Of a DNA stretch of 64,000 nucleotides, positions 1 through 39,397 are shown piece by piece (within the stretch, counting starts at the first letter, position 1; every line of letters starts with the position of its first letter). The DNA lies in assembly GCA_001662655.1 (NCBI GenBank), contig KV460242.1; one strand, given 5' to 3'. This DNA is from Pseudogymnoascus verrucosus (taxonomy: Eukaryota). A model generated the notes under the pieces. That model saw nothing but the letters and a program-made list of their open reading frames with translations, searched no databases and was not told where the DNA came from. The translations under genes and the position numbers were made by a program.

Positions 1-556
1 CCTCGGCACAGCCGTCTCCAAACACAAAGGATCTACCGTCGAACTCGACATGCCTAGCGAGCAGCTCGACATCGACTCTGGCTACGACGAGGCCCTGCGC
101 AACCTCCGCGATCGCATCGAGGTTCCCGAGGTCGGACCCTCGGAGGAGACCGCACAGGAGGACTACTACCGCGCCGTGCGCACGTACATGGTCGTCTCGT
201 GGATGGTGGCGAATGCCATCCTGGCCATGGCGGTGTCGGAGGCGTACCAGGGCAAGAACATCGGGAGCAACTCGTACCTAAAGTTTCTGCTTTGGTCTGT
301 AGCGGCTATCGCGCTGTTCCGCGCGGTGGGCAGCACGACGTTCCGCATCATTGAGCTGGTGGGTATGCTTATTGACGGGAAGGCGAAGTGGGAGAGCGGG
401 AGCTATAGGTGGGGGGGTAGCTCGGCGGCGGGGAGCACGGTGCTTAGCTCTAAGGCTAGGGGGGGTGGGTTTTGGTCGAAGTTTGGATTTGGGAGTGTTA
501 AGGATAAGATTAGTGATATCTCGAGTAGTATCGGGAGTAGTGTTTCGAGGAAGTGA
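1..556 (+). CDS. Chitin synthase (division 1, probably class II), 3' end only
   Basis: C-terminal motif [27 protein letters not shown] followed by [20 protein letters not shown], typical of fungal class I-III chitin synthase C-termini; ORF runs off the window start. Confidence 0.85.
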
Positions 557-8997: not shown

Positions 8998-9810
8998 TAA
9001 ACCAAAGGTGATTTTTAGGGTAGTGGTAGGCGCAGAGAGCGCCTCGGAGATAGACATATAGGGCTTCGGAGATGTGAATATCTCAGCTATTTCTAATATT
9101 AGCGAACAACGAAGTAGTCGACGTACTCGCAACTAATGGAATATGATTGAAGGGAAAATAAAGCCGCGGTGCTGTTTTATTTTCTCCTCCAATAATTGTT
9201 GTGGTTCTTGTCGATCAAGCTGATTAGTATGGAGTGTACTGTAACTTGACGTTACTTTGAAGTTGTAGAGTATTAGCTCGCGTTTAATAGCAACCTCACT
9301 GGTTGGACCCCGCAATTTACTAGAGAGGTCTAAATTTCCGTACGTCAACTTCCCCACACCCTGTCGAGTAGCTGTTGCTCTCTTAGCAAGGATTCACAGT
9401 AGCTGGGATTTATTCTTGTTTATAAGGGATTTCTCAGCCAAAAGAGAGCAACACCCTCTTTTTGGTGCCGTAAATAGCTGCATAGCACCCTGGTAATATT
9501 CTGACACCACCCCCACAATACCCTGCATTTTCCAAGGATTATATACCTGATCAGAGTATCTCCGGTTTGCCTAAATGTACTTGGCGGAGGCTTGAGACGC
9601 TTGATTCAACCTCTCATAGTACTGTACATAACTAGTACTTTGATACTTTGATATTGTGACAGACGGCTTCTACGCCTCTACCTCTATAAGTTATAATATG
9701 TATGTGACTTTCCCCAATTTATCCCTTCGTCCATTAGACTTGGGAAATTCTATCCTCCGTCTCCTATAATATCTCCTCACTTTGTTAATTCGTGCCTCGC
9801 TGTCGCCACG

Positions 9811-11658
9811 ATGGGGCTCCTCCAGCTGATTATCCGCAACGATGCGATGAAAACGGATCCGCATGAGATCTATGGATGGAGAGTATATGCTGTTGCTTGT
9901 TCGGTGAGTTTTCCAGACAGATTCTAGAGGCAAATAAATGATAATCTAATGATGTTCATACTATAGGCCAGCTTCGGTGCCCTCCTGTTCGGTATGGACT
10001 CAGGCACCATCGGCGGCGTTCTCACAATGCCCTCGTTCAAAATGTAAGATGAGGGCCACCTTTAGCTGGGCAACTGACCACGAATGTTAACATCTTCAAA
10101 CAGAAAGTACGGCATCGAGGATCTTGACAAGGGGGCCAGAGCCAATCTGAGCTCCAATATTGTTTCCACACTACAAGCTGGTTGTTTCGCGGGATCCCTC
10201 ATTGGATCATATGTAGCCGATAGAATTGGCCGAAAGCCCGGACAGCTCCTGTGTGCAATTATTGCATTGATTGGATGTATACTCCAGGCTGCTTCTGCCG
10301 GGCACCTCGTTGCCCTCTACTTCGGCCGGTTTATTGCTGGCTTGGGGACCGGGGGAGCTTCGATGATGGCGCCGGTTTATATCTCCGAAAACTCACCACG
10401 TGCCATTCGAGGTGCTGTGACGGGGCTCTACCAACTCTTTATTGTTGTTGGCATCATGTTAAGTTATTGGATCAACGTAGGACGTACCCCATATATGAAA
10501 ATACATGATGAGCTAACATTATATCCAGTACGGCTGCCTCGTTCATCTCAAAGGCGACGCCCAATGGGGCGTGGCTCTCGGAATGCAATCTATCCCCCCA
10601 TTCCTTCTCTTCTTCACCATGATCTTCTGCAACGAGTCACCCCGGTGGCTGGCAAAGCAAGACCAATGGGAAAAGGCCAAGGACACCCTCCAAACACTCC
10701 GACAGCTCCCAATGGATCACCCGTATCTCCAAGAAGAATTCAACGACATGGCCTCACAACTCGAGCATGAGCGCCTGCTAGTCGGCGGCGAAACGTTCTG
10801 GAGCCTCCAAAGGGAAATGTGGACCATCCCTGGAAACCGAAAGCGTGTCCTCATCAGTATCGGCCTCATGATTTGCCAGCAGATGACGGGAACCAACGCA
10901 ATTAATTACTATGCCCCGCAAATATTCGAGAATGTCGGTATCACCGGTAATAAGAATGGGCTGCTCGCCACTGGTGTCTACGGTATCATCAAGGTCCTCG
11001 GCGTCGTCTTTTTCCTCCTCTTCATGGCAGATTCGCTTGGTCGCCGAAAATCCCTGCTGTATACATCGGTGATCATGGTCGTCTGGATGTTTTACATCGG
11101 CTTCTACGTCCGCTTTGACCCCCCTGAGGCAGGGAAAGCTATCCCCCCTGCTGGCTATGCCGCTCTCACTTTCATCTTTTTCTTTGCTGTGTCCTTTGAG
11201 GTTGGATGGGGACCCGTTTGCTGGATCTACGTTTCTGAGATCCCGTCCGCGAGGTTGCGATCCATGAATGTGGCTATCGCTGCGGCGACACAGTGGCTCT
11301 TCAATTTTGTGGTTGCCAAAAGCGTACCGACTATGTTGGTGACAGTTGGGGCGAACGGTTATGGGTATGCCTCACTATTTCTGTAAACCCGAAGCAATCT
11401 CCTTGTTGCATCATAACACTAACGTGAAACCTCTTTAGGACTTACTTCATATTTGGCTCCTTTTGCGCCGCCATGTTCGTCTTCACGTGGTTCTTCGTCC
11501 CTGAAACCAAAGGCATCTCGCTGGAACGAATGGACGACCTCTTCGGTGTGACACGACTTGTAGAGGAGAAGATGGAGAGGGAAGAAATACCGCCTCAAAA
11601 TGACTCGACCCATAAAGATCCCTCTGCCACGAATGGTGAGAAGGTCGAAACTATCTAA
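9811..11658 (+). CDS. MFS sugar porter, quinate permease-like; ~6 exons
   Basis: [80 protein letters not shown] and PETKGISLE sugar-porter motifs. Confidence 0.9.
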
Positions 11659-11771
11659 TAATTGTGGCCGAGGGGAATTTATTTAGGTGAGCTGTAGGGA
11701 ATGTGTAAGGACATAAGAGCACAGAGAGTGTCATCTTAAACTATTAAGGCGTGTGATAATTTAGTCACCTA

Positions 11772-12097
11772 ACGTGCATCCCTGCATCACGGGACGCACC
11801 CCGTGACGGGACAAACTATTAGTACTTTGAATTTAATTAATTCTAAATTTGTAAGCCTATTAAAAATTCTAGTATTTTTGTGTTAGCTATGTATGTAGCT
11901 ACTCTTAAATAGACTAAACCCTAGCTACTCTAAAATTTACGATCACGTTGTTACCGTTACGCCTGTTTACAGAGGGCGTTAATTTAAAGTATAATATTAC
12001 TCCTAATACTTAGAGGGTCTTATCTAAGCTTTAGAGCCTCATTATGATGTGGGAGATTAATATCAGCTTTATGGCGGCTGTACGGCGCAAATTCATG
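11772..12097 (+). mobile_element. Left inverted arm (~325 bp) of a putative cargo-carrying element; begins like a Fot1/pogo terminus (TA|ACGTGCATC...)
   Basis: TA then ACGT terminus with two ~13-bp direct repeats (..CACGGGAC / ..GACGGGAC), the same layout as the TIR at 15307; 11776-11970 matches 14667-14862 directly and 11966-12097 matches 14180-14350 inverted, differing mainly by C>T/G>A changes. Confidence 0.7.
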
Positions 12098-12128
12098 CTG
12101 AAACTTGTGCTCTCTTAGTACGTATTTT

Positions 12129-13895
12129 CTAGACCACCACAACTCCATACCAAGCCATCCCCATCGCACCCCCAAGCAAAATCGCAAATGGTGCACTCAA
12201 CCCGAACCATGCACCTCCAACGAAACTCGTAGCCGTTATTGCAACCCACCATGGGTCTCTTCCAAGGGGACTCCCACCCTGATTATCCACATCTACGTAG
12301 CCAATCTGCCACAATTTATACACTGCCGTAAAAACCAATCCAACAGCCCCAGCATTAATTCCCCGTAGCAGAGACAGCAGCCAGCGATGAGAGCGTAGAA
12401 CGCTCCATAATCCCATGATTCCTATGACAATAATGATGCCCGGCGTGAAAATCGCAATAAATCCGATCAGGGCCCCTGAAAATGATGGAAGAGGTGTCCC
12501 GGCAGTCGCAAGCGAGCCAAGGTAGATGGCAAAGTTAAAGTTTGGGCCGGGAAAAGACTGGATGAGCGCAAGGCCAAGGAGGAAATCGCGTGGGGAGACC
12601 CAACCTTCGGCCACAATGTACTCGCGAAGAAGGGGAATAACTACAGGTCCGCCGCCAAAGATAATCGTGCCTGCAAGGTAGAGGTTTGCGAATAGTGAGA
12701 CGCCTCTAGGTGGACTTTTCAGTAGACCGCGAATAACCATGATCGTGATAAAGGACATTAAGAAGGCGCTAATGACACACACTCCAGTTTTCCAAGTTAG
12801 GAGATTCATTTGTAGGCTTGCTGGAACGACTCGGTCGGTAGACTGTGATTCTTCTTGTGATCTAGTAGTCTCATCACTGTCAGGAGAAGCTTCAACTTCT
12901 GTCGATACTAGATTAGGATCCTCAGAAAGCGGCATGCGTCGAAGATATATCGACCTCTCATCTTGGTCTGGCTCAGTGTAAGGAGCCCTTTCATCCTCCG
13001 GCATCTCCCCACTAGAGCGCTGTCTCGGTTCGGGGCCTTCTCCAGTCGTCTGATCCAATGTCCGCCGTGGTTTCCATACCCGCTTATACATGCGCTGGAG
13101 CCACCGAAAATCCCAAACAATCGTTACGATTCCCGCCCCAGCCATCAGGACTGGGAAAAACCATAAAGCTGTGTACAGCATCCCACCAACTCCACCAAGG
13201 AACACTAGCGCACGGGTAACTTTATCAGTGATAGCTTTTTGCGCAAGCTGAACGGCGGCGAGAGCGATGATGCCGACAGTGGCTGCGTTGAGACCAGAGA
13301 GTAGAGCGTAGACGGGTAGAGGTAGGGTATCACTGATGTGTGAGACACCTAATGATAAACCATACATGCCGATGGCCCCGGGAAGACTAACTACCAGTTA
13401 GTAGGATATAATGAAGCAAGTGAATTACTTCGAGATATAGATTGGAAGTCATAAGGTCGCACATACCACCATAGTAAGAATGCACCAAATCCAGCGAGAA
13501 GACCACCACGAAGATAGTTTATGCAGAACAACATCTTGGTACTTGCTGGGCCTGGGAGTGCCTGACTGAGCGCAAAAACCTCTTGAAACTGACAATGTTA
13601 CCATTAGGTTAAATTTCCTTTGCATTTGACAGGAGGTTTTACAGTACCATTTGCTCATCTACCCACTCGTATTTCTCTACAAATTTCTTGTGAAGCTGCA
13701 CTAAATCAGCAACCACGTAGGACATTAGACCGTCGTTCGTACAATTTGGAAGTGCACTGGCGGACCACCGAACGCTGTAAATCCCAAATGCCAATTCGCA
13801 GCTACGACGTCTACCGCTCGATCCCAAACTTTAGATGAATCTATGTGCATTAGGTCGGCACCACGCCGTAGAACAGAGACATATATGTCCGTCAT
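12129..13895 (-). CDS. Chromate ion transporter (CHR/ChrA family, long two-domain form), multi-exon
   Basis: N-terminal exon ...ANWHLGFTAFGGPPVHFQI, then QALPGPASTK; second domain AGTIIFGGGPVVIPLL and ALIQSFPGPNFNFA; the GGP and PGP CHR motifs each occur twice. Confidence 0.92.
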
Positions 13896-14179
13896 CTCAA
13901 TATCTCATCTCTTTTGTTCCTAGACTAACTTCTGCTAACGTATAGAAGGAGGAAGAAGTTGACAGTAAGGACATTATGTTTGTAGCTTCAGTTTGTGCAA
14001 TATCACGACATAACACGTGATATAGAAAAGGCACGTTCCTAGTGCGGCCGCCTCCGGGCCTAGAGGAACATTAATACCGTCTTAGCTAATGACATAAGTT
14101 TAGGACGTGCGGGTTGTTATACGCTAACTGAAAATCGGTAGTTACTTGATTTAAGTTATTAAACTATATAGTAACTATA

Positions 14180-14350
14180 TATGAATTTGCTCTACATAGC
14201 TGCTATAAGGCTAATATTAATCTCCTACATTATAATAAGGCTCTAAAGCTTAGATAAGACCTTCTTATAAGTATTAGGAGTAATAAGAGTTTATAGTAAT
14301 ACTATAGCTTAAGGGGTTCTATTATACTTTAAATTAATGCCCTCTATAAA
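14180..14350 (-). repeat. Inner part of the right inverted arm (RIP-mutated reverse copy of 11966-12097, with ~35-bp indel)
   Basis: ATGAATTTGC...ATATTAATCTCC...AGGCTCTAAAGCTTAGATAAGACC...AAGTATTAGGAGTAATA...ATTATACTTTAAATTAA.GCCCTCT is the reverse complement of the left arm. Confidence 0.85.
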
Positions 14351-14461
14351 TGTAATAATGTATAGTTACACTTATACTACACCTTACTAATCTAAAAAGA
14401 CTATAATATTCTAGCTTAGCTAGAATACACATAATATACTATATATACTATAATAGTTATA
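14351..14461 (+). repeat. Short LTR-like repeat, copy 1 (3'-truncated)
   Basis: Starts TGTAAT; ~110-bp inverted match to 14880-14991. Confidence 0.6.
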
Positions 14462-14666
14462 TCCCCCCCCCCTTCTAGTCTACTTATTAGTCTATATACT
14501 TACTTCTAGGCCTTATTACTACTTAGGATGCTAAGGTTTAAATATATATAGCTTAAGCCCCTAAGGTTGCCCTTATTAGCTAGGTAGGGAACTATATTTA
14601 TATAGCTAATCTACTTACTTAGTAAAGTAAGCTAGCTAGAAAAAACCTATTAACTATAGAGCTAGA

Positions 14667-14862
14667 ATATTCCTATATTATAGGATATACCTTATAATAA
14701 GATAAACTATTAGTACTTTAAATTTAATTAATTCTAAATTTATAAGTCTATTAAAAATTCTAGTATTTTTATATTAGCTATATTATATAGCTACTCCTAA
14801 ATAGACTAAACTCTAACTACTTTAAAATTTATAATTACATTATTACTATTATGCCTATTTAT
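14667..14862 (+). repeat. Outer part of the right arm, now in direct orientation to 11776-11970 (locally inverted), heavily RIP-mutated
   Basis: AAACTATTAGTACTTT.AATTTAATTAATTCTAAATTT.TAAG.CTATTAAAAATTCTAGTATTTTT is shared with 11813-11879; differences are almost all transitions toward A/T. Confidence 0.85.
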
Positions 14863-14991
14863 TATAATAGGGTGCTAGTATATAACTATTATAGTATATA
14901 TAGCATATTATGTATATTCTAGCTAAGCTATAATATTATAGTCTTTTTAGCTTAGTAAGGTATAGTATAAGTATAACTATACATTATTATA
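14863..14991 (-). repeat. Short (~129 bp) solo-LTR-like repeat, copy 2, inverted
   Basis: Reverse strand reads TATAATAATG...CCCTATTATA, consistent with RIP-mutated TG...CA ends; the 5-bp ATAAA is duplicated at the 14350 and 14862 junctions. Confidence 0.55.
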
Positions 14992-15306
14992 AGGATATAT
15001 ATTACTTATATTTCTTTATAGCCTAAGAGTTCTATATAGGCCTAAGAATCTACTAATGTAAAGCTATTAAATAATTATCTTTAAAGACTTATTTTATAAA
15101 TATATATAATTATTAGTGTTCTCTAAAATAGTAAGAGTATTTGTGCTTTTTAAATAGTATTTAGTAATAAGTAGTATTTAGCTAACTTTTAAGGTATTTA
15201 GTAAGTATTTACTAAAGACTTAAATACTATTTAAATTCTTAGTATATATAGCCTAGAACATAAAGCTATAAAGATTAGTAGGTAAAGTAGTATTAGTAAT
15301 TAGTTA

Positions 15307-17162
15307 ACGTAGTGTATGGCCTAATGCACCATATGGCCTAATGCGCTAGTAAATCCGACCCCACCCTCTTTGATCGTGTTCTGTGTGCTACATAATCAAC
15401 CAACTCGTTATCTAATGCTAACGATGAGTTGCCTAGTACCTCTACATCCTCTTCCTCCTCAACTTCCTCAACAAGGCGCTTACGTAGGCGCTTATAGGGT
15501 CGTTTTACAACTAGCTTAGTCTCTACCTCTCGCGCAACATCTAACACATCTTGTGTACTATAGACAAACGTGCCTTCTAATCTAACTCTTTTCCCTCTTT
15601 TATAAGCCTTTTGTGCCTATAGTAATTCTTCTTTCTCTTGTAGCTGCTTACAGAGAATAAGGAGCTTAGTATTTTGTGTTTTAGCTATATGGGTAACCTA
15701 GTCTACATATCGCTTTGTAGGTAATGTAAGGCCTAGCACTTATGTAAGCACTAAATTCAAAAGCACATTTGACTCCTATAGCTTAGTCCTATCTAGAGGT
15801 GAGCTCTTAAGTAGCGAGAAGTCTAGGTTGTCTTAGTTAGGTGGTGTATGTAGCTTTTTAAGGATAGGAGTAGGTTGAGCTGCAAGCTAATTAAGTATCT
15901 TTTATAGGTTTAAAGGCATTAAACCTAATCCTCTCTATCTACTAAGAATGTTATCTAACGTAACAGCGTTCTTATAAGCCTAGATAAACATTTGCATCCA
16001 TTTAGCACATAGGATCTAGTGTAAACTATGTTAAGAGATAGCGTCTATCTCTCTTGCATACGCACGCTTAAATGCTAAGAACACTCTAACGTTAAGTGAT
16101 TAAAGAAGATGTAAGTAATGTAGAGGCATTATAAGTAAGTCAATACTGTTCTCTATATAGTATGCAATGAAATTAGCTTGTATGTAACTTCTATAGCCAT
16201 CTATAATTAACAATTAGCGTTAGTTCTCTGCTATTTCTCGTATTTAAGGCTTAAATACCTTTATTAACTAATGTAAACTAAGATCATTAGATGTCTAGCT
16301 ATTCTTACTAACTGTAAAATGCTAGCTAGAAGGAGTTTTAGAAGGTAGCTAGCTAGAGTTTAGATTTTTAGCTTTAAAGATAATCATTAGCGTTAACGAT
16401 GTGCTAGCTACATTAATGCATTCAATATTAGTTACCTACTCTTATTTGCCTACTACGCTCTTATGCTTTTAGTTTAAGTTAGCTAGAATAAGGACCTATG
16501 TCGTCTAGCTTTCTCTAACACTAAACCCTAACTCGTCTATGTTCTAGATGTTCTATACTTTATATAAATGTTCCTATAGTTGCACTGCAACTGCATTAAA
16601 CTAGCACTTAATTACCTTGTAGGAAGCCCTATTAAATCGTACATTTTACATTTAGCAAGCATAGATACCCTAAACTGTTAGGTGCTAATTCTAAAAGCAA
16701 TAGAGCTATTCGTAGCTAATTAGAGGAGTTGTGTTAACGACAGCTTCATTTCCTAAGACGCGTCTAACGCGTTAACGTCAAATCAATTTAGCTAACTCCT
16801 TTAGTAGCAAAGGTGTCATTAGTAATCTAGCACGTGTATAACATGTAATCTATTATACTAAAGTCTTCTCTTCTACATTTGAAAGAATCTGATTTATCTT
16901 ACAAGCCTAGGCTTATAAGTTACCTCTAGCCATTCTTTAACGAAGGGTATCGCGTAAGACTTTAAAGTAGTAGGTAGTAGCATAAACGGACGAAAAGCTG
17001 CTGTCTTTTAGTAACTAGATAGCGTCCTAGATATCAGCTTCATAACGTAATGATTTTAAACGGTTAGTAGGATGCATTGCAAAAGTTGTTATAATTTAAA
17101 GGTAGTAGGGTTAGATTTACTAGCACATTAGGCCATATAGCGCATTAGGCCATACACTACGT
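15307..17162 (-). mobile_element. Full-length Fot1/Pot2-like (pogo, Tc1-mariner) transposon, 1856 bp, RIP-inactivated
   Basis: ~50-bp TIRs ACGTAGTGTATGGCCTAATGC...TATGGCCTAATG..CTAGTAAATC at both ends; TA target duplication on both sides. Confidence 0.93.
15338..17077 (-). pseudogene. pogo/Fot1 DDE transposase with many RIP-induced stops
   Basis: Minus strand gives MHPTNRLKSLRYEADI*DAI*LLK...FKVLRDTLR*RM (HTH), I*NIDELGF, and LLIIDGYRSY...DLLIMPLHYLHLL*SLNVRVF (cf. LILDGHGSH...LPPHSSHLLQPLDVGVF); stops are TAA/TAG derived from CAA/CAG/TGG. Confidence 0.88.
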
Positions 17163-18481
17163 TATTATAAAATGTACTAATATATAACTACTATAGTATA
17201 AGGATACCTCCTTACTTAGGTTAGTTATAGTTATTATATAGCACCCTTAAGACTTAGGCCTATTATAGTTTAATTATAACTATAAGCCTTAGGCATATAG
17301 TATAAAGAAGCCTTAGGTAAATAGAGAGTTAGCTAAGTTAGAGGGGTTTTAGGTATTTAAAGAAATAGGAATAGAGGGTTCCCCCTTTATCTTTTTTATA
17401 TCCTTTATAGTAGACCTATAGGATTATACTAACTCCTATCTAACTTATACTCTTATATATAACTTCTTATAATATAGTACCCTATATCCTTATATATAGT
17501 AGTTATATATTAGCTCTACTAACTTTTAAAGACTCTTACTATAGCCTATTATTACTATTTAGGGGTAATAACAAGCTTCTACCTATATATAGTATTACTT
17601 ATAAACCTTTAGGTCTTATAGACCTAGAGAGCTAAGAGGAGCTTAATTAACTTAAATTACCTCCTTAAATTAACTAATACAACCTAAACTTAAATGTAAA
17701 TACCCCTTTTTAACTTTAACAACTTAATATTTACTACATTATAGCTATACTCCTAGTGTAGCTTTTTACGTTAATTAAGCTAGATAGCTAGGACTACTAT
17801 CTTACTATATAAGATAGGCTTTAGGGACTATAGTTGTTGTTAAGAAGCTATAATAGAGCAACCTATAGTTTAAATTTTAGAATATCTTTAATAGACTTAT
17901 CCTAGGCTTATAAGGGAGGGTATAAAGGCTAAAAAGAAGGTTCTAAGATAAGAGGATATATAGTAGAATAGATTAATCCCTCTTTTACCCCTCTACGTTA
18001 TGCCTTAATTTATAAGTAATATCTATAGACTAATAATATCTAAAGCTAGGAGCTACGTAGAGGTTGTTATAGGCCTTCCTTTAAGGGTGATTTTCTTTTT
18101 AACAGACGGTTGGAAATAGCTCTAAGGGCGCTCTATTTGTGCAGGTGTAGGGCGTTCGGGTGGAGAGTAGCCACTATACTCCTCTTGTAAAATAACCAAA
18201 AACAATTCATTGCCTATTATTACTATTCAGCGAGTGCTATTCGACGAATACTATAATTTTGTATGAGTATTCAGGAAAACCCCGAATACTATTCGAATAC
18301 TATTTGGTGAACACTGATTATTATTAACTTTATAAAACGCCAGCTTTCTTCCCGTTCTATATCGGTATCCGCGTTTCAAAAAAATCCCCATACGCCAAAA
18401 AAAAAAGATCTATCCGCAAGCAATGCATAAAATCCACAACAAATTGTTCAAAGAAGAAATATGGGCAGATAAAGCCCGTTG

Positions 18482-21400
18482 TTAAGCTTTCTCAGACTTC
18501 TTTCCACCCTTAAAGAGCGACATAATACCGCCCTTAATGGCGCCAATGACACTTGAGATCGAAGCGATCACAAAGCCCAATCCGAAGCCCCACCCGCGAA
18601 TACGAGTGGTATAGATGAAGAAGTAAACTAGTGCCCAGTTGATGATGCAGAAGGCAAGGAAAATGCCCATGCACTTCCACTTATCATCAGACTGAACATT
18701 AAGAGTGCGAAGATACTCCTCGCCCGACGAAAACGCGCAGTATGTGCAGTCAGACGTCGCATCTGGGTTGCCAAGGTATCCCGACTTGGCGATCTTCGAG
18801 ACGAAGTCGCCCGCGTAGTCGAGGCAAGTCTGGTTCGGTGGCGGGTTGAAATGGCTGAGTTCGAGAGGACTGCAGATGACCGGGGTGGAACTGACGGTGC
18901 CAGCGAGGGAGCCGCGGATCCAGTAGGTGACAGGATTAACGTAATACATCCAGTAGCGCCAGAAGACGGGGAAGGAGGCGTATGGAATGAATACACCGTT
19001 GAAGAAAAACACCATGACGAGGAAGAATGGAAGGACGTTGGAGATGACCGTGAAGGATGGTGCGAATGCCGTAACCCATTGACCCCAGCTCATTTGGAAG
19101 AGGTAGAACAGCATCGACATGAGGTACATGTAGCCAGCGGAGCTGGAGTCAGTTGGAAGACCAGTAGGGTAGTACCAGCAAAGCCAGTAGATGGCGCTCG
19201 TGAAAATGGCCGCTGGAATCTCGCCGAGAATACTGGCTGTGCTGAAGGCGATCCAGCCATAGATTCGGCTGGGAAGCTCGCGAGCTTCCCAGAGGCTGCG
19301 GTTGATATAAAACTTTGGGATGATGCTGTTCATCATGATTGGTGGGAGGAGGACAATAAGGAAGACTGAGAACATGCGGTTCTGCATGTCACCAACAGTG
19401 TTGCCAAGCTGCCAGAATGTCTGATGATATGTTAGTTAAATTCTCACAAAGTTAACGGCAAACTTACAAATCCATTGAAAATACCAACAACAAAGCTGAC
19501 AAAGATCTTCGAGTAGATGTAGGAGGGGTCGCGCCAGTATTGAGTAAAGAGGCGTTTTGTGAGCATGGTTGTCTGCAACATAACGGGCGCTGCAAATTCG
19601 TATTGAGTTCCCACTTCTGGGGCAGGAAGTTGGCTTCGCTCCTTATTAATGCGCTCGATCTCTAGGGCGAGCTCTCTGTTATTACTCGAACTTCTCCACT
19701 CTTCGTTCCAGTCGACGACCTTTCCATCTCTGTAGCCTCGCTTGGCTGCGGTTTCCAGGATAAACTCTGCCACATTCTTCGAAGGTGGGCAGACAAATCC
19801 CCTCTCGGCGAAGTATTTAACAACTGCAGACCCACCCTCGCCGACAGGACCGAAGTAGAAGGTGTTTCCACCGGGGTTCAGAGCTAGAATCATGTCGAAT
19901 TGGTTGATAAGCATGGAGGATGGCTGATGGATGGTGCAGACGATTGCCTGACCAGCAAGAGAAAGCTTCTTTAGGAATCGGATAATTGAGTACGCAGACT
20001 GGCTGTCCAACCCACTCGTAGGCTCATCGAGGAACAGCAGTAGACTCGGCTTGGCAGCTAGCTCGACACCTATGGTCAGTCTCTTCCGCTGTTCGACGCC
20101 GAGAGAGGATACAATTGCATCCTGGATATCCTCAAGCTCTAACAAGTTGATGATCTGGTCAACATAGGCTATCTTCTCCTCCCGGGGCACAGTGCGATCC
20201 TGGCGAAGAATAGCCGAAAACTCGAGTGATTCCCGGATAGTCGCTGTCCCATCGTGCAGATCCATCTGTTCACAGAATCCAGTAGAACGTTGGAAATCAG
20301 GCCCCAGGGCCTTGCCATCGACCAACATATCTCCACTAATGACCCCGACGGTTTGCCTTTGGGCAAGGGTATTGAGAAGGGTAGTCTTTCCGGCACCCGA
20401 GGCACCCATTAACGCTACCATCACACCTGGCTTGACATAACCACTGATGCCATTCAAGAGCTTTTTCTCGCCGCCGTCGTACGGAACGGTATACTCCACA
20501 TTGGACCAAGTAAACACACGGTCGCTGTTGGTCAAGGTCTCGGCACTCTTCTCACCTTCATTGATAGTGGTTGGCTCAACAACCGCACTAGGCTGGCTGC
20601 CGCCTTCCATGTCGCCCACAGGTGTCTTCTCAGATACAACAAGCTGCTTAGCCTTGCGCGTCTTCTTGAAGGACAACGCGCCGCCACCTCCACCGGTGAA
20701 TGATACTTTCTCAGCAGCGATGGCTGTAATAAGCGTGTACAATACAGTGAAGGCGATCACGACACCAAAATTGCGCCATAAATGCTCCCTCGTGTAGCCA
20801 AAAGATGCGGCGAGATAATTGGATCCAGAAACGGTGGTGCTGCCAATCTCAGAGCCTGGTAGCGTACAACCTTGAAACTCGCGCGATACACCTGGCCCTT
20901 GAGGAACCAGCTGCGAGTCGCTGCATATCATGTCTCGTCCGGAGAATTCGTTTGTAATGACGGCCTCATAGGCATATGATATAGGATTGACGTAGTAAAT
21001 CCATCCGAACCAAATGTACTTGTTGACGAGAAGAGGTTTTGGGATGACATATCCGACGAATATGACCAATAAGTTGAGAGCAACTCCTGCGAAGCGAACA
21101 GCGTCATCGATGCTTGGTGAAACTGCAGCAAACATGCGATACATCGCAGTAAGGCACAGAGTTGTGACATAGACGAAGAGAATATATATGAAGAATTTCG
21201 CCGCAGTCATGTCCATGCTACTCAAAAAGAAGGTAATGATGGCGAATACAACAACTTGACTGAGAATGAGGGGAATGTCAACCACAGCGCGAGCAATCGA
21301 CACTGCCGAGGGCCGATAAAAGGCGTAGTCCTTGTGACGGGCAATGACGACTCTGCCAGAGACAGCCTTCATCAGCTCAGTGAGTTGAAGCCAGCCAGGG

Positions 21401-23094
21401 AACACAATAGAGAAGAACAGCACACCGCTGCGAGAGAAAGCACCGCTGGTATCGAGAGGCTGTCCATAGAAAAGCGACCCGACGATGAGGGCGTTGGCAA
21501 TGATGACGAAGAATTTAGTATACAGAGACGTCTTGTCGCCGAGGGTGAGCCAGAACTCGCGCTTGGTGCACGCGATGACTTGACGGTAGAATGATACGGT
21601 GTAGCTCGACTCCTTCGAGACGTGCTTGCTTTTAGATTGATTGACAGTCTGCTCAAAGCGGCGGGTGTCGGCGTTGTCGGTCTCTTGTATCCTGGCTTCG
21701 TATCCACTGACATCTTGAAGGAGACGCTTATAGCTCTCGCTAGCTCTAAACACAGTCTCGAGTTCCTGTGCGGTCTTTGGTGTGGAGGCCTCACGGCCGG
21801 GCTGGAAGCGCCTCGCGTTGGGGTCGCAAAGAGAAGTGAGGAAGTCAGATGTTGTCTCTCCAGGTGTGCACAGGAAACCCAAGCTTTCGAAATATTCCTT
21901 GGCTTCGGTAGCAGGGCCCTGATACAACATCCGTCCCTCCTCAATAACCAGAACCTTGTCCATGAGATCGTAGATCCCCTCGCCAGCCTGGTAGAGCGTG
22001 ACGAATGTGGTTCGGTTGCTGACATCAGTCATCACCCGCAAGGACTTTGCGTAGTCAAGAGCAGTGCTGGCGTCGAGACCTCTCGTCGAATTGTCCCAGC
22101 AGACAACTGTAGATTTCGTCGCCAGAGTCTCTGCAATGCCGACACGCTTCCTCTCTCCACCAGAAACTCCACGGGAAAAGGCGTCTCCGACAAGGGTTTT
22201 CTTGGTGTGGCTGATACCAAACATCTTCATGAGGGCATTCGCAACAATGGGGATACTATCTTGGTCCTGCTTCTTGGTCTTGTTCATCAGAGCGAATTTC
22301 AGGGTCTGCCAGACATTGAGCGATGGGAAATGCTGGTCATCCTCCGGGTTATAGTTGACTTCTCCACGGTAAAGTTTGTGCTGCACGTCAGCGGGAATGC
22401 CTCCGTATGTGACATCGCCGTTGACTGCCACAAAGCTGGAGCGTTCATTGGCGATGGTTTTCAAGAAAGTAGAGCATCCGGAGCCAGGCCTTCCGAGGAC
22501 GAGCATCATCTCGCCATCGCGAACCGCACCGGTGAAATCATGGATCAGATTCCTCGTAGGTGGCGCCTTTCCAAATTTGAGGGCAGGAATGAGATTGGAT
22601 GCGTGGCGGTACAGATCCGGACCCAACGAACCAATAACAGCATCGGGCAAGGTCTTCACAAAGGTAGCAGAGGAGTTGACTCCCACCACGGTCATATTTT
22701 TGAAGACAACTCCGACCTTCTTACCGGCATCTCCAGCAGTCGTGCGGCGCTCGAGCTGACCACCCAGCAGAAAGCGGTCGAGCTGAAAGTCTTCTGAATC
22801 GTCAGGTTCGCCAGCAATGTCGGCCTCGTCGTCGGCCAGCTTCTTCCTCTTGCCTGCGGCCGATTGGGTCCTCTTGTGAGACTCCAATTTTGATAATTCC
22901 TTCCTCATCTCAGTCAGGTCCTCGATGGCTCCATAGCGGGACACGGCCTCCTGGTCGTCGTCTTCGCCCCATGTTCCTCCACGAATACTCTCTTTTGAGG
23001 CGACTGAGTGGACGGCAGTTGATCCCAGCGGTGTGGCATTGTAGCTGAGGACGTCGTCGTCTAGGGGAGACGGAGACTCAGCGCGGGTCGCCAT
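18482..23094 (-). CDS. Full-size ABCG/PDR multidrug ABC transporter; intron ~19422-19468
   Basis: NBD1 LVLGRPGSGCST, VSGGERKRV, CWDNSTRGLD; NBD2 MGASGAGKTTLL, EQRKRLTIGVEL, LFLDEPTSGLDS; two TMDs with a PDR_CDR extracellular loop. Confidence 0.95.
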
Positions 23095-24209
23095 GGCTGG
23101 GTTCGGAGGGGGGTAATGGTATGATTCTGGAGATAATCTTCATAGTAGCTGGGGAAGTGAAATTTATGTATATATAGATAAACAAAACAAGGGTCACAGC
23201 GGGAGATGGCGTAGGGGGAGCTAGCATAGGGATCTAAGGCCGGAGATAAGACGCCACGCAGGACGGAGCCGGATTCCGCAGTTGAGTAACTGGATTAGGC
23301 ACGCTTAGGGTAAACTAGACAGGAGTTCCTGGGTCGTTTCAGCAGTGTTGATGACTGTTTAGGACTATTTGGGATTGTTTAGGACTGATTGTGTAGTACC
23401 CAAGTATTCCCTCGTGGGGTTATGGCTGGGATAGATACATCGACACTATTAGATAGAGGATGAGTAATGGTGAGTAGTGGGGGTTCCAAGAGGCAGAAAG
23501 AGCCACCGGCGGACGACCAACGGCCCCTAAAAAAGAGTTAAGAGCGGCTAAGATACACTAATGCAGCCTAACCACGAGTCATAGTACGCTAGGAGATACT
23601 TCAAGGAGATACCGCTACGCATCTCCTCTAGGGCAAACCAGATAGACTCTGGAAAAGGACCAGGGGAGATGGATTATAAATCAAAAGGTGGGTGCACTTG
23701 ATTGGAAATCAACCTTAGAAGGCCGCATTTCCTAGCACATGCGGCCAGGGGATTTCAGGGATTCAAGGATTCAAGGATTCACGCCCTACGGAGTACTAGA
23801 CTAACGCGGCGTGACGAATTCGGGGGTGCGGCGTAGCGAGTAGCGAGTCCGTTTGTGAAAAAAGCGAAGAGATTTTTAGGATTGCCGATGGGGGAAATAT
23901 GGAAATAATGGGTTTTAACTTTTTCTTAGCGCCTTGGACCCTTAAACCCGACCGCCGCACGGCGACCGCGACCACCCAGCGTCCAGTGAACATTGCTTAC
24001 CACAAGTCACGGCAGATGGGATGACGTCTTTTTATGCACTGTGCGCACTGCTGCTGCGTGGACCTATTAACTCCGCCGAGGATTATCCTGCGGGCGGGTT
24101 ACTCTACATGGTATCGCGTGGGTGAGTGATTAACCACTATAATAGCGGAATGGAGAGCCGCAGTCATAAAACAAAGCTGGGGATTGGGGATTCTGGCCGG
24201 CCGAACTGT

Positions 24210-34115: not shown

Positions 34116-37100
34116 CTAATCACTCACACTATCTTCGTAGCTCGATATCTCATTCTCATCCTCCATCACCTGCTCATCCATCTTCCGCTTCCTGCTCTCC
34201 TTCTCCCTAGCCTTTGCGGTTCTCTTGTCCTCACAACCAAGACACCCGCAGTAATCCTTCATTACCGCTCTCTTCTCCGTCGGCTCATTCTTATACTCCG
34301 GGTACGCGTTTTCGTAGCCGGCAATAAGACCCGAGTTCAGGTCGTCGTACGCTTGGATGGCATCCTGGAGATTCGCGAACTCGACCAGAGCCTGCTTTCC
34401 CTCAGATTGCAGGACGTAATTCTGCTGTGGCGTGATGAGAGAGGTGCGCACGAGAATCGTGCCAAAGCACTCGGAGAGTTCTTGGAAGACAACACGGTTG
34501 GACTTCTCCTTCGGGATGTGAGAGAGGAGTATGCACCGCCTGGCCACGGAGATGCTGTGTTTAAGGAGATTGGGCTGGGCGGGGAGGATGGCCTGGGATT
34601 CTGCGCCTCTGAACCACGAGGCCTCGATCTGAAGGTCCCTGATAGCGTGTCCTGTGCCTTTCTCTCTTATGTTACGGACATGGTGCACGAATGAGCGTGC
34701 CTCCCTCGTGTGCATGAAGACGACCACTGCCGTTCGCATTCCAGGGTGTAGTTGGAACTCCTGCACTACCCCACCAAATACCTTGTTTGCAATGGCGCCT
34801 GGTGTGAATTTTGGCAGCACATTGCCTGGAGCCATGTGAGATTCCTGGACGGCATGGAGGCGCACCGTGACGACACGGCCGCGCTCTTCCATATTCTTAC
34901 TCGCACGGTTATATAGTAGTTGTTGGAGCTCAGTGAGTGGGGGTGATGGGATGTCAATATCCGTTGGAATTCTGAGCGCAGGAGAGTCGTCATAGGCAGC
35001 AATGAGTTCAGCGAGTCCGTTCGCTGCGTTAGTTCCATCGCTTGATCGGTCAGTGCCTGTGCCATTGAAAATGTGGCGATCGAGGGGGGCATTGCGGAGG
35101 CCTCTGACAGTGGAGGATGCGTCGTTTCCGTCGTCTGTGGTACACCACGAGTTGGAAGATGTGGCAGGGGATGGTTGCATAGATTGGCGAGGTCCAGTAA
35201 CTGGGTTTCCGGTACCAGAACCGCCCGAATACAGACTTGGACGTGACTTGGAGCGATGGTTATTATGCAATCTGTCGGGGAGCCTAAAGCTTGGTTCTGC
35301 GGCCATTGAGCCGACCATCGAGCCAGCCATCGAGCCAGCCATTGACCCAGCTACAGAGGCGGATTTAGAGGACGAGCGCGTCCGAGACGAAGACCTCGAA
35401 AACTTAGGTGCGTCAATATCGACCAGACGCTCCAACATCTCTTGCCAACTATCATCACCCAGCCTAGGAGTTCGGGAGCCACCACTGGTGCCCCCAACCG
35501 GCGGGTCATCGCAGTCACCCAGCACTCCCCAGGTGTCAAGAGTGTCACCAGTTCCTGTGGTTCCCAATGAGGTACTGGCGTTGTCCTTTTCTTTCTGCTT
35601 TGCTTTATCGGCAAGGATGGCTCTCATACGCTCTTTTTCCTTTCTACGGGAGATTCGTCTCTCATAGAATTTCGGAAGGTAGTGCAGCTCATGCTGGTCG
35701 CTTTCATCTGCGCCTGCTTTCTTTTGCCAGAGATCGATGGGTTGACGGATGAGTGTCAATCGTTCCATGCGGTCCTCAAGGGGCATGGCCTGCCACGCGT
35801 GGTATTCTTTGGTCGCACGTATCATTTCGCCGTCGCGTGTTTGGAGCATTTCAGAGAACCCCCGTCGATAGCGCTTCTTTACCTGACCCAAATCCTCGCC
35901 ATCGTATTCTCCCCTCTCGTTCATCTTGCGTGTTCGTGTCTCGGTCTTCATTTCGACCTCGACAGTATTGCCATCGCCGAACTCGTTAATGTATACCACT
36001 GGTGCCTTGTTTTGTGGGAGCCAGCCGCCTTGGTTTCGCCGCTCAAACGTCGTTGGTGCAGGACGGGCATCATGCATAGCATTGATGTTGTCTATGAAGT
36101 TTTTTCTCACGTCTGGATCTATCTGGCTAGATTGGTCGTGAGCCGTTTCATCTGTGACCACGCTACCTTGCGGCAAGGTGGGGTGATGTTCCATGACACT
36201 TGGCTCAGAAGGAGGAGCGTTAGGAGAACTAGGGATAGAAGATATATCAATATAGTCATCAATTGACTCGGCCCTATCTCGACGAGATTGCCTGTCAAGC
36301 TTCTGAAGGGATTTTTCAGTAAGACCTCCAACCTCCGGTGCCTTTTTCTCCTTGACTTCCGCCGCAACCACTACGCGAGAGGTTCCAAACGTTGCAGCGA
36401 GAGGGGTGTTTCTTGCATCGGAGGGATTCCACATATACGTTTCCGGTGCATTCTCTTCCACTGCTTCCTGGTCTCCCTCTTCATATTTGACGGCCCCTGT
36501 TTTCGGATCTAGAGTGGTCCAAGTTTTCTTCAGGGGCACATTTTCCGCTTGGTACGAGCCGAACTGGAAGCCACGCGGAATCTCAGCGTAAGGGTCGACC
36601 TTTGGCTTGAATGGCATAAGTCCCGGTGCAATAGGTGGAGCCCTCTTTCCTCGTCGTCCCTGATGCTGATCGTTTCTGCGGCCGACAGGGTTGTCAACTA
36701 TCGGAGACCCTCTTCCTATCCCAGATGATGAAGGTGGTCCACCTCCCCAGAGTCGGTTATTGGGGTCAGTGGTTTTTGTGTCACCCTGCCTCGTAAATTT
36801 AAGGCTGCTGTGGTTGGAGAAGGAGTCTTCGTCCTCATTGTCATCGTCCGCGAACCTCTTCATCACGTTGTGTGTGCCCTTTCCAAGACTCGACGTAATG
36901 TTTGAAACATGTGCTGCTTTGCCGTCCGAATCATCATCTCCTTCGAAGTCACTGTCCTCTAACAGACTATATGGGCCTAAATCGCAGTGAGTTTCGTAAT
37001 CATAAGAGACCAAATTCAATGCTTACCAGCACCAGCACCGCCCCTCAAGGAAACCTCAAAATTGGGGTATTCATAAATAGGGCCGGCTTCGTCAACCGCT

Positions 37101-39010
37101 ACTATTTCGCCATACCCTGTGACTGGATCAGGCTCTGGAAGTGATGTGTGGGGGTCTTTCGTCCCAGTGCGGCCTCTGTTGTGCGGAGGCATTGAGCGCG
37201 CCCTTCTCGCATCGCGGCGATCATGGTGCATTCCTTCAATCTCCCCAGGTGAGTACTCCATACGGTTAATCTCAGGTATCCCGACGTTTGCGATAGTATA
37301 GTTCTGGTATCCCACTGTCATATCTGGACCGTTGAAAGGTGCTGCGATGTTTCCCGGGTGTGCCCGATTTATTTGAGGCTGTCGAAACCCTGGTCTCCGG
37401 GATTGTGGTGGATGAGAATAATGTCGTTCTGCCAACGGTTCAAAGGGCGGCACTATTCCTTGACTATGTATGATCTGGCTGTTGAAGATCTCAGCGTCGG
37501 GTTTCAGTCTCTGAGGCTGCAACTGGGGAGAATAATGTGGACGCTCCGATGATTTAAAGGGTGGTACTCTTCCCGAGATATCAACCTGACTGCCGAAGAC
37601 CTCAACGCCAGATCTTAGTCTCTCATTCTCCACTCGCAACTCTGAGTTGGCCTGCTTGAGTCTCCTTAACCTTGTCTGGGTACTTCGAAGTTGGTTTAGG
37701 TTGTTGTGCTTTTTGAAATCGGCGGAGAGGTGATGAAATATTCGATCTGCAATCAAACTGCAGTATCTGTCAAGTTCGCCGACTGAGACGAGGAAAATGT
37801 GTTCGAGGTTCTCTTGACTACAGTCTTTCCGAACCCAAGACAGAACTTGGGAGAGTTCTAGTTGGAGAAGTGAGTTGCTTCGGGGTGATATTGTGAGGTC
37901 AGTTATGGGAGCAGGTAGCCTTTCCTGGATACTTCTTATAACTGACGCGAAGGGGATGGTATCGTTTCTGAAAAAGAAATGGGTCAGAAAAGCTTCTAAC
38001 AGAAATATTTCAAAAAGACTGAGAGAGAAAGGAATTGCGGCGCAGTTCTAGGTAAAGACCTAGATAATTGATAGAACGTTATGGAAGCTGTACTAGTGAG
38101 GAGTGTTAATATAAAAAAGTGGTGTATTGGGTCCAAACACAAACCCGAGGAAATTTGCATTGTTATCACGGAATTGGCTGATGGAATGAAGCGGAAATGT
38201 ACGCAGGCCAATGAAACAGTTATACAATGGACGGATGGTCCCAAGGAGGGAACATATGGTGAATTGAGAGAAGTGGATGGAATTAAAGTGATAGGATTTA
38301 AATTGAGAGATCGAAGGTCAAAACAAGAAATCGCGTGTGAACAACAAGCGAGCCAGCATCCCTTTCTCCGTGCAAATGCCCAAAACAAATAGCCCAACAA
38401 ACGTGTAGAGGCGAGAATATTAGTCCAAAGAAAGAAAAGGCCATGCCACTTACATATCAGGACATTTAAACTTAGGCAGCTCCTCCAACAATTGTCTCAT
38501 CTCTTCGTCCTCCATTATCTCTTTATCATTTCTGATCATCTCGTCGGCACGCCTCCGGACTTCAGCCTCTCTTTCCTCATTCGCAGCCTCCTCGGCCGCT
38601 TTTTCCCAGTTATTCCGCCTATCGAAAATCTGCCATGCCATCGCCGCATCCCCGCCACTCTCGTCCATTGCCATATCCAGTGCAGGCAGTAAGGGTTGTT
38701 TCATCTCGAACGCATAATATGGGAAAGGTTCTAGACCCTGCTGATCTTGATATGCCCAGACCGCTTCCTCAGCTTTCATCTGTTCCCTGACCATGCGGCG
38801 ATATTTTTGTTTGGTGGCCTGGCGATGCTCATGGAGAGTACGATGGCAGTTTTCGGGATCGATATTATTGGGGGAGAGGGTGGGCTGGGGCCTGGGTGGT
38901 AAAGAGAGGTCGACCACGCGTAATGAGCGTGGGAGAGGTGGATAGCCAGACTGGTCTGGCTGGGGCATCCAGACCCCTTGCTGCTGATTGTATGGTATTT
39001 GTGAATTCAT
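34116..39010 (-). CDS. Large (~1450 aa) largely disordered protein with C-terminal RRM-like domains; predicted introns 37968-38453 and 36977-37026
   Basis: Three ORFs join in frame via GTAAGT...CAG and GTAAGC...TAG introns; C-terminal RTAVVVFMHTREARSF and RCILLSHIP...QALVEFANLQDAIQAY resemble RRM beta/alpha patterns. Confidence 0.6.
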
Positions 39011-39261
39011 CCTGTGTTGTTGGCTGAAAGAAATCGGCCCAAGGGTGTTGTCCGAGGTTGTGAAAGCAGAGTGGAAAGAAGAGAGTGTCAAAGTGAGTGT
39101 GAGGGAAGAAGATAGGAAGCGGAAGGAAGAGAGTGATACTGGGCAGAAAGAAGGCACAAGATGGAAGAAATGGAGTGAGGGTAAAAAGAAGATGGGGACA
39201 GGAAGATGGTAGGAAAAGAGCGATAGTGAGAGGAGATAAGGTTGAAGAGTCGGGTCTGGTT

Positions 39262-39397
39262 GAAAGGAAGAGATACGGAGAAAGGAAGAGATACGGAGAA
39301 AGGAAGAGATACGGAGAAAGGAAGAGATACGGAGAAAGGAAGAGATACGGAGAAAGGAAGAGATACGGAGAAAGGAAGAGATACGGAAAAAGGAAGA
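39262..39397. repeat. 18-bp minisatellite GAAAGGAAGAGATACGGA, 7 copies plus a partial copy
   Basis: Directly visible perfect tandem copies. Confidence 0.95.

Follow-up and report, generated by a model that had tools for sequence, protein, structure and literature searches.

How does a complete gene of the CHR/ChrA chromate-transporter family come to lie between inverted arms of a single repeat in a fungal genome? The question is raised by a locus of Pseudogymnoascus verrucosus within a 64,000-nt stretch of contig KV460242.1 (assembly GCA_001662655.1), which we call the window; an earlier reading of its letters (the original prediction) had proposed a CHR gene carried by transposon ends. Judged from sequence, the region is probably a decayed, non-autonomous, TA-targeting transposon with long terminal inverted repeats (TIRs), the sole content of which is a complete CHR gene, and it would have been inserted between an MFS transporter gene and an ABC transporter gene in an ancestor of the P. 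verrucosus group. The anatomy of the region, a homologous intact unit elsewhere, a terminus present in multiple copies and the presence or absence of the gene across species are matters of observation. The parts of the element have the following window coordinates.

11770..11771, no strand: target-site TA beside the outer terminus of the downstream arm (alignment of termini; the flanks in Logan contigs diverge from 11769/11770).
11772..12097 (326 bp), plus strand: downstream arm, a long TIR with the outer terminus ACGTGCATCCCTGC and two direct repeats (arm comparisons, profile).
12098..12128, minus strand: the 31 nt that remain of the 3' spacer separating the CHR stop codon from the arm (510 nt at the matching place in the metagenome contig L001).
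12129..13895, minus strand: intact CHR/ChrA-family cargo gene of 4 exons and 526 aa (PF02417, identity to P0121, dN/dS against L001).
13896..14095, minus strand: upstream spacer and promoter, which travels with CHR (alignable to L001 5532-5786).
14096..14352, minus strand: inner half of the upstream arm, inverted and altered by repeat-induced point mutation (RIP), containing the piece at 14180-14350 that the original prediction had described (profile positions 190-359).
14353..14473, no strand: X, an inverted copy of 14869-14989, 91% complementary to it, at the left edge of the inverted segment (repeat search).
14474..14662, no strand: Z, RIP-like AT-rich DNA that would once have bordered the upstream arm on its outer side and since have been inverted (composition; role from the inversion model).
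14663..14664, no strand: TA beside the displaced outer terminus of the upstream arm (alignment of termini).
14665..14862, plus strand: outer half of the upstream arm, now direct, with heavy RIP and the first 2 nt missing (profile positions 34-204).
14869..14989, no strand: X', the partner of X, at the right edge of the inverted segment (repeat search).

The cargo gene is intact, as had been predicted. The four-exon model on the minus strand (13895-13743, 13695-13648, 13588-13467 and 13386-12129) has GT-AG introns of 47, 59 and 80 nt and a 526-aa frame without stops, and its product is identical at 526 of 526 residues to the P. verrucosus protein VE01_07905 (P0121). A Pfam search matched PF02417 with an E-value of 8.3e-42 in two stretches inside exon 4 alone; with its paired Chromate_transp domains and unbroken reading frame the protein belongs in the CHR/ChrA family. 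The best protein matches are from Pseudogymnoascus. In a comparison with the L001 gene over 414 aligned codons of exon 4, the nonsynonymous divergence (dN) is 0.090 and the synonymous divergence (dS) is 0.487; at a dN/dS of 0.185, CHR is held by purifying selection. The stop codon occupies 12129-12131.

All the features that had been described around the gene are present: the arm at 11772-12097, the inverted and direct pieces on the right, and the 31-nt gap between the stop codon and the arm. At the downstream arm terminus, TA is followed by ACGT and then by a sequence repeated twice in direct orientation, its ACGGGAC core lying at 11789-11795 and 11806-11812. On the right, the inverted piece at 14181-14350 corresponds to arm positions ~195-325 (85-94% identical), and the direct piece at 14667-14862 corresponds to arm positions ~5-198 (positions 39-198 lie at 14701-14861, 86%); the two window arms are 83-86% alike before RIP transitions are counted. 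Between the arm and the direct piece, 38 of the 46 differences are C>T or G>A (19 + 19), in one direction and mostly at CpA/TpG and CpG, and a transition-tolerant ungapped scan, in which the copy extends to 14667, found no transversion across 196 nt. With changes that run one way and no transversions in that scan, the differences between the arms carry the signature of RIP. A profile built from three arms matched the window pieces in nhmmer with E-values of 2.6e-85, 8.1e-28 and 8.4e-18, well outside what chance would give. The pieces on the right cover profile positions 190-359 (minus strand) and 34-204 (plus strand) and are thus two halves of one inverted upstream arm, broken at about position 197.

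The present arrangement of these halves would be accounted for by a single inversion of 14353-14868, reversal of which would restore a full inverted arm with the TA at 14663-64 facing outward. The 121-nt inverted pair 14353-14473/14869-14989 encloses the outer half-arm and 189 nt of AT-rich DNA, and the model would require a staggered far breakpoint with 121 nt duplicated at both edges. A transition-tolerant scan of the 64-kb window detected no inverted copy of the outer terminus. The proposal that two transposon ends face outward around CHR holds today for the left arm; the terminus-bearing piece on the right points the same way as the left arm and lacks the first 2 nt after the TA, although the TA itself is still there. 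Each arm bears an outer terminus only, and the inner ends are without an inverted copy of it. The term composite, which implies two complete elements, consequently has to be given up, and each arm is better described as one long TIR with a single terminus.

The most informative counterpart of this arrangement comes from the 76 metagenome loci encoding CHR relatives that we examined. Contig L001 (10,235 nt) carries a CHR exon that is identical to protein P0007 (recorded on 4 contigs) and 83% identical to that of the window. Its unit reads TA at 5089-90, an arm from 5091, a spacer, CHR on the plus strand (ATG at 5787, stop at 7538-40), a 510-nt spacer, an inverted arm to 8407, and TA at 8408-09. 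The two L001 arms are 73% alike (266/364 aligned positions), with inverted homology of ~420-440 bp on which blastn, MAFFT and the repeat search agree, and they match the window arm over its whole length at 196/322 and 189/319 positions. The window from 14333 to 12079 on the minus strand is colinear with L001 5303-7592 (77.9% over 2308 columns), and because the two align in this way, the inner arm, the upstream spacer and CHR form one conserved block, with an arm/spacer/gene junction common to both. On either side the similarity ends at the TA. Beyond it, the L001 flanks were found to hold no homolog of the MFS, ABC or CAX-like genes; their open reading frames (ORFs) matched no Pfam family and gave weak matches only in a comparison with the protein atlas. 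The same TIR-cargo-TIR unit therefore stands at at least two unrelated sites, the MFS/ABC site of the window and the L001 site with its unrelated flanks, which agrees with the expectation that the cassette would recur at other loci. Since the arm identity of ~60% is about the neutral level for a dS of 0.49, the arms and CHR have diverged together from one common unit.

The L001 alignment also corrects the limits of the arms. The coordinates 12097/14179, taken earlier as the natural inner end of the arm, mark the point at which a deletion cut into the left arm. About 75 nt are missing from the inner end of this downstream arm, and so is a 36-nt stretch within it; the 36-nt stretch survives in the upstream arm, which reaches inward to ~14096. 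A reading of 14074-14178 as a separate transposon fragment was likewise discarded, as this DNA belongs to the arm and the spacer.

Could the arms be insertions on either side of a resident gene? Our first reading, of a resident CHR between unrelated transposon debris, had come from mis-oriented right-hand pieces and a contig of run X3, and it was dropped upon the L001 unit. A related explanation, in which independent insertions of one transposon family came by coincidence to flank a resident CHR, can draw on the multi-copy nature of the family, on the RIP-mutated transposon nest to the right of the gene and on the presence in run X3 of the left arm without the right one. We consider it very improbable: L001 has both arms in the same positions relative to CHR, with the same arm/spacer junction in a different context, and each arm has one terminus only, so that neither is a complete insertion.

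The ends themselves resemble those of the IS630/Tc1/mariner group. Four termini from three organisms (window left, L001 left, L001 right and L022, another of the metagenome loci) consist of TA, an ACGT-like sequence and CCCTGC. TA lies beside the termini at 5089-90 and 8408-09 in L001, at 11770-71 and 14663-64 in the window and at the L022 terminus, and inverted ends delimit the L001 unit. A 3-bp target site was considered and set aside, as it would read TAA at one end but TTA at the opposite end and hence give no direct repeat. The L022 copy is a 94-nt terminal arm fragment (12944-13039) that reads TA followed by ACGTCCGTCCCTGCG and contains the pair of direct repeats. A CHR gene with no more than 53% identity lies 1.7 kb upstream of it, and L022 yielded no partner arm. 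The earlier assignment to Tc1-mariner/pogo can be upheld in part, by the TA duplication, the TIRs and the TA-ACGT terminus with its subterminal direct repeats; the transposase partner that would complete it was not found in the stretch covered, which is the 64-kb window and not the whole genome.

That the arm is a multi-copy transposon end is shown by Logan contigs of four runs (X1, the probable source, and X2-X4), which we aligned to window positions 9001-21000. Contigs that match rightward from 11769/11770 and have an unlike sequence to the left number 6 in X1, 6 + 8 in X2 and 4 in X3, with none listed for X4. Because the terminus thus meets several different left flanks in three of the four runs, the arm is a true multi-copy end. 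Across 11856-11965 there are 2 to 10 variant contigs per run, and one X1 contig fuses the arm forward (to 11887) to the arm reversed (14831) on opposite strands, as expected of an arm-arm derivative. In all four runs, one contig that covers the MFS gene stops inside the arm, at 11797-11943, and another leads from the arm through CHR. At 11996 the X3 contig has 34 additional letters, which agree with the upstream arm; it thus retains the 36-nt stretch deleted from the downstream arm of the window.

The distribution of CHR among Pseudogymnoascus genomes was followed through NCBI locus tags taken from protein cluster listings. The CHR cluster was covered in full (8 members); the ABC listing holds 15 of 74 members, so that absence from it is uninformative.

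P. verrucosus: MFS VE01_07904, CHR VE01_07905 and ABC VE01_07906, consecutive tags.
Pseudogymnoascus sp. 24MN13: ABC VE04_05932, CHR 05933 and MFS 05934, consecutive tags.
VKM F-103: ABC V499_03644, CHR 03645 and MFS 03646, consecutive tags.
Pseudogymnoascus sp. 03VT05: ABC VE02_06227 and MFS VE02_06228, consecutive, with no member in the CHR cluster.
VKM F-4246: CHR V492_05368 (7.7-kb contig) and MFS V492_04876 (43-kb contig), with a different CHR neighbour.

In the V492_05368 model (P0124, 1062 aa), CHR is joined to a CAX-like membrane protein with no counterpart in the window. It probably represents two adjacent genes merged by the predictor, but it shows that CHR in VKM F-4246 has a different 3' neighbour; this would be a third context for the gene, seen through the fused model. 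Five Pseudogymnoascus genomes are named in the CHR cluster and at least 15 in the MFS clusters. VKM F-4520 is among those with CHR, and 05NY08, WSF 3629 and VKM F-4514 are, like 03VT05, among those lacking it. Identity between VKM F-4246 and P. verrucosus is 91.7% for CHR and 91.7% for MFS, and because the two genes are equally diverged, CHR is old in the genus yet patchy, in at least two neighbourhoods. Taken with the L001 unit and the varied terminus flanks in three of four runs, this presence and absence supports the proposal that inverted ends of a single TA-targeting family enclose CHR and make up with it a small cargo element that is non-autonomous. Neither an arm-free CHR in syntenic position nor any sign that the arm fails to be a terminus elsewhere was encountered.

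Several findings weigh against a transposed unit. No transposase ORF is present in the window unit or in the L001 unit, and no autonomous relative was found in the 64-kb window, the stretch covered of this genome; the DDE transposase (DDE_1 with HTH_Tnp_Tc5/CENP-B) that members of the proposed group encode was not seen. Two arm-flanked units are known. A profile search found no arm in 74 of the 76 CHR-centred metagenome loci, and of the close-clade loci, four (L001, L002, L003 and L012) extend 1 kb or more to either side of the gene, with arms in L001 alone. No sequence of an empty site was seen, and the absence of CHR between ABC and MFS in 03VT05 is read from consecutive locus tags only. A dS of 0.49 gives no sign of recent movement, and the pieces and joints listed for the four runs place CHR nowhere else. 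In X2, X3 and X4, no single contig bridges the repeated arm, as one contig ends and another begins inside it. Finally, the X3 contig keeps the downstream arm and CHR and then joins 14073 to 18262 (6 extra letters, 33 nt on the short side); because it lacks the island with both right-hand pieces, the model needs a secondary deletion. This 4.2-kb deletion, which begins at 14074 just inside the spacer, is a secondary loss of the upstream arm.

Some of the same findings would suit an ancient resident locus, in which inverted arms arose once around a native CHR, by two insertions or by local inverted duplication, and were inherited vertically while the flanks turned over by rearrangement and gene loss, the dispersed arms being offshoots like miniature inverted-repeat transposable elements (MITEs). 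The lack of a second CHR place and the 74 loci without arms fit such a history, as do the dS of 0.49 with ~60% arm identity, which speaks for an old split, and the equal divergence of CHR and MFS within the genus. We regard it as unlikely, though deserving of more attention than the other alternatives, for the window and L001 cease to be homologous precisely at the TA-flanked termini, left and right, CHR is found in three different neighbourhoods, and ABC and MFS carry consecutive tags in 03VT05. Rearrangement breaks at both termini would have been needed more than once. None of the 76 metagenome loci is syntenic with the window, the homology of the other listed loci to L001 is limited to the coding region, and distant MFS paralogs occur near CHR in L043 and L064-L066 only (23-28% identity over longer alignments).

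A further question is whether CHR and its arms travelled inside some far larger mobile element, for instance a Starship, which would also explain presence and absence. Chromate transporters are indeed reported among the genes of a horizontally transferred Starship-like salt-tolerance region (10.64898/2026.10.08.757356). In the 64-kb window, however, none of the 115 ORFs of at least 110 aa matches a tyrosine-recombinase captain or any transposase family, and the MFS and ABC genes persist with consecutive or near-consecutive tags in genomes that lack CHR. This origin is the least probable of those considered, and the claim that the element is distinct from Starships stands.

The phylogeny of CHR bears on how far the gene may have travelled. 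In a tree of 43 proteins, Pseudogymnoascus, a cluster from two Rutstroemia genomes, Phaeomoniella chlamydospora and 12 metagenome proteins form one clade with support of 99/100. The clade is nested among Leotiomycetes; Phaeomoniella belongs to the Eurotiomycetes and Rutstroemia to the Helotiales. Identity between Pseudogymnoascus and Rutstroemia is 86% for CHR, and the best matches outside the genus reach 66% for MFS and 71% for ABC, which hints at horizontal spread of the CHR lineage. It is a possibility, and a rather doubtful one, that the arm-CHR-arm unit is one member of a gene-ferrying pogo-like family that moved CHR horizontally between fungal lineages; such movement would explain the tight cross-genus clade and the higher identity of CHR than of its neighbours.

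We propose the following history for the element of the window. The original unit would have measured ~2.8-3.3 kb, with inverted arms of ~330-440 bp around one complete CHR gene with its own promoter, and with termini of TA followed by ACGT(C/G)C(A/G)TCCCTGC and then two direct repeats. A transposase acting in trans, which would probably belong to the Tc1/mariner-pogo kind, would excise the complete unit at its two outer ends and insert it into a TA. In the ancestor of the P. verrucosus group, the unit would have landed between convergent MFS and ABC genes, where several events would have immobilized it: a deletion that removed the downstream arm's inner portion together with nearly all of the 3' spacer, the inversion of 14353-14868 that split the upstream arm and made the 121-nt inverted duplication, RIP, and transposon insertions nearby. 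A relative (run X3) would later have lost the upstream arm in the 4.2-kb deletion. CHR itself has remained under purifying selection. What we infer is that transposition took place, to which superfamily the element belongs and in which order the decay proceeded. Mobilization in trans, which had been predicted, would thus apply to the original unit and no longer to the window copy, which with its deleted, inverted and RIP-mutated arms is a fossil, immobile now.

The element sits between two genes that lie outside it and next to a separate transposon.

9967..11658, plus strand: MFS sugar/quinate-permease-like gene, the left neighbour (Pfam Sugar_tr; ortholog cluster with VE01_07904; start approximate).
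15307..17164, minus strand: separate RIP-degraded pogo/Fot1-like transposon, TA-flanked, 1854 bp, with ~65-bp TIRs, outside the CHR element (repeat search, ORF matches).
18482..23139, minus strand: AtrF-like PDR ABC transporter gene, the right neighbour (Pfam; cluster with VE01_07906; 5' end approximate).

The MFS stop codon lies 111 nt from the TA of the downstream arm. Between CHR and ABC there is an AT-rich island with a G+C fraction of 0.28-0.34 over 14001-18000, in which 31 short ORFs matched no Pfam family. The transposon at 15307-17164 has two ATGGCCTAATGC repeats in its TIRs and 72 stop codons in one reading frame; its surviving 92-aa ORF matches the C-terminal tails of DDE_1/HTH_Tnp_Tc5 transposases, and DDE_1 was found in 7 of the 9 longer matching proteins tested, mostly with HTH_Tnp_Tc5, which bears out the Fot1-like label given to it. 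The resemblance that had been noted between its ends and the arm is real and consists of the TA-ACGT start and the layout of paired subterminal repeats; nothing else is shared, and the repeats of the TIRs differ. At 17001-17800, the summed Logan contig depth, which we do not read as copy number, is 8 to 110 times that of neighbouring single-copy bins in all four runs, and the stretch belongs to a very abundant repeat. The contigs of all four runs break at 18262-18303, at short GAATACTAT repeats and a small hairpin, and the island-lacking joints of X2 and X3 both end at 18262-18265, the right edge of the variable island. In the ABC cluster, several Pseudogymnoascus genomes list adjacent members of 787 aa and 958 aa beside the 1521-aa AtrF-like protein (e.g., V496_00655/00657/00658), which suggests a tandem second copy, split or mis-modelled. 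Farther along the window, the minus strand of 34119-39493 holds long open frames (968, 343 and 347 aa) with no Pfam match at an E-value of 1e-5.

Two further observations concern the CHR lineage itself. Long contigs of X2 (15.2 kb) and X3 (11.4 kb) match only 12516-12686, a 171-nt conserved stretch of CHR, at ~82%, and because the match is confined to that stretch, these two genomes hold a second, diverged CHR paralog elsewhere. In the CHR promoter, an E-box-like TCACGTG block at 14012-14018, found also in L001 near 5640, lies inside a conserved stretch of ~25 nt. The block resembles Cbf1-type sites of sulfur-metabolism genes, and it would fit the sulfur-starvation control reported for the CHR gene of Neurospora. 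Bacterial chrA genes confer resistance of the efflux type and reside on plasmids and on composite or Tn3-like transposons, and the element described here is similar in placing a CHR-family gene on a mobile element. For Neurospora, by contrast, a 45-fold induction of the chromate-transporter gene upon sulfur starvation and binding by CYS-3 are reported, and CHR-1, the one fungal CHR studied, is described as the cause of chromate sensitivity and chromium accumulation (PMC8550094). Because the Neurospora gene is induced by sulfur starvation and bound by CYS-3, the bacterial-style logic of metal resistance may not apply to fungal CHR.

How does the element compare with known carriers of genes? Whole-gene carriage in eukaryotes is credited mainly to Starships or, in rare cases, to a large TIR element (ToxhAT, for example), and small cut-and-paste transposons are usually credited with no more than the capture of fragments. 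Pack-MULE-type elements and MITEs are non-autonomous TIR elements with a host-derived interior, mobilized in trans, and their cargo usually consists of gene fragments. The CHR element is likewise a non-autonomous TIR element with a host-derived interior, but its cargo is a complete gene with a promoter, kept under purifying selection. TA duplications define the IS630/Tc1/mariner group, some members of which (Minos, Tec) are reported to have TIRs of several hundred bp, and Fot1 is given as the fungal representative of pogo (PMC7325037). The CHR element shares the TA duplication and TIR-defined ends with long-TIR Tc1/mariner elements and with pogo/Fot1; those encode a DDE transposase, whereas the CHR element encodes a host transporter, and no partner with matching TIRs was found in the 64-kb window. 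Starships are described as giant elements moved by their own tyrosine recombinase (PMC9156397, 10.1101/2020.03.06.981548, PMC11162782). Like the CHR element, they are fungal cargo movers that explain the presence and absence of accessory genes, with metal- or ion-handling cargo that is reported to include chromate transporters (10.64898/2026.10.08.757356); the CHR unit differs in being bounded by long TIRs and TA, with no tyrosine recombinase in the window.

Among the cases described in these sources, the closest appears to be ToxhAT, a hAT-linked element that spans 14.3 kb, ends in 74-bp TIRs and holds several genes, remnants of a transposase among them (PMC6737239). It too is reported as a class II, TIR-bounded fungal transposon with cargo useful to the host (ToxA), found in varied contexts and species, with RIP decay in some copies. 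The CHR element differs in its size of ~3 kb, its TIRs of ~330-440 bp, its TA duplication and its single transporter gene, and it has no near-identical copies that would mark recent horizontal transfer. We found no report in the open-access literature of a small Tc1/pogo-type element that carries a whole host gene, or CHR, in fungi.

If the region is what we take it to be, small DNA transposons, besides giant ones, can carry a complete host gene. The only content of this ~3-kb, long-TIR, TA-targeting element would be a transporter gene and its promoter, kept by selection in two lineages and in different neighbourhoods. It would offer a simple mechanism for single-gene presence/absence polymorphism in fungi, together with a search image (long TIR, TA and one host gene) for elements that would be missed by annotation pipelines built around transposases or captains. 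The CHR lineage, which in fungi may serve chromate uptake or else sulfate and sulfur scavenging, would be marked as an accessory mobile trait.

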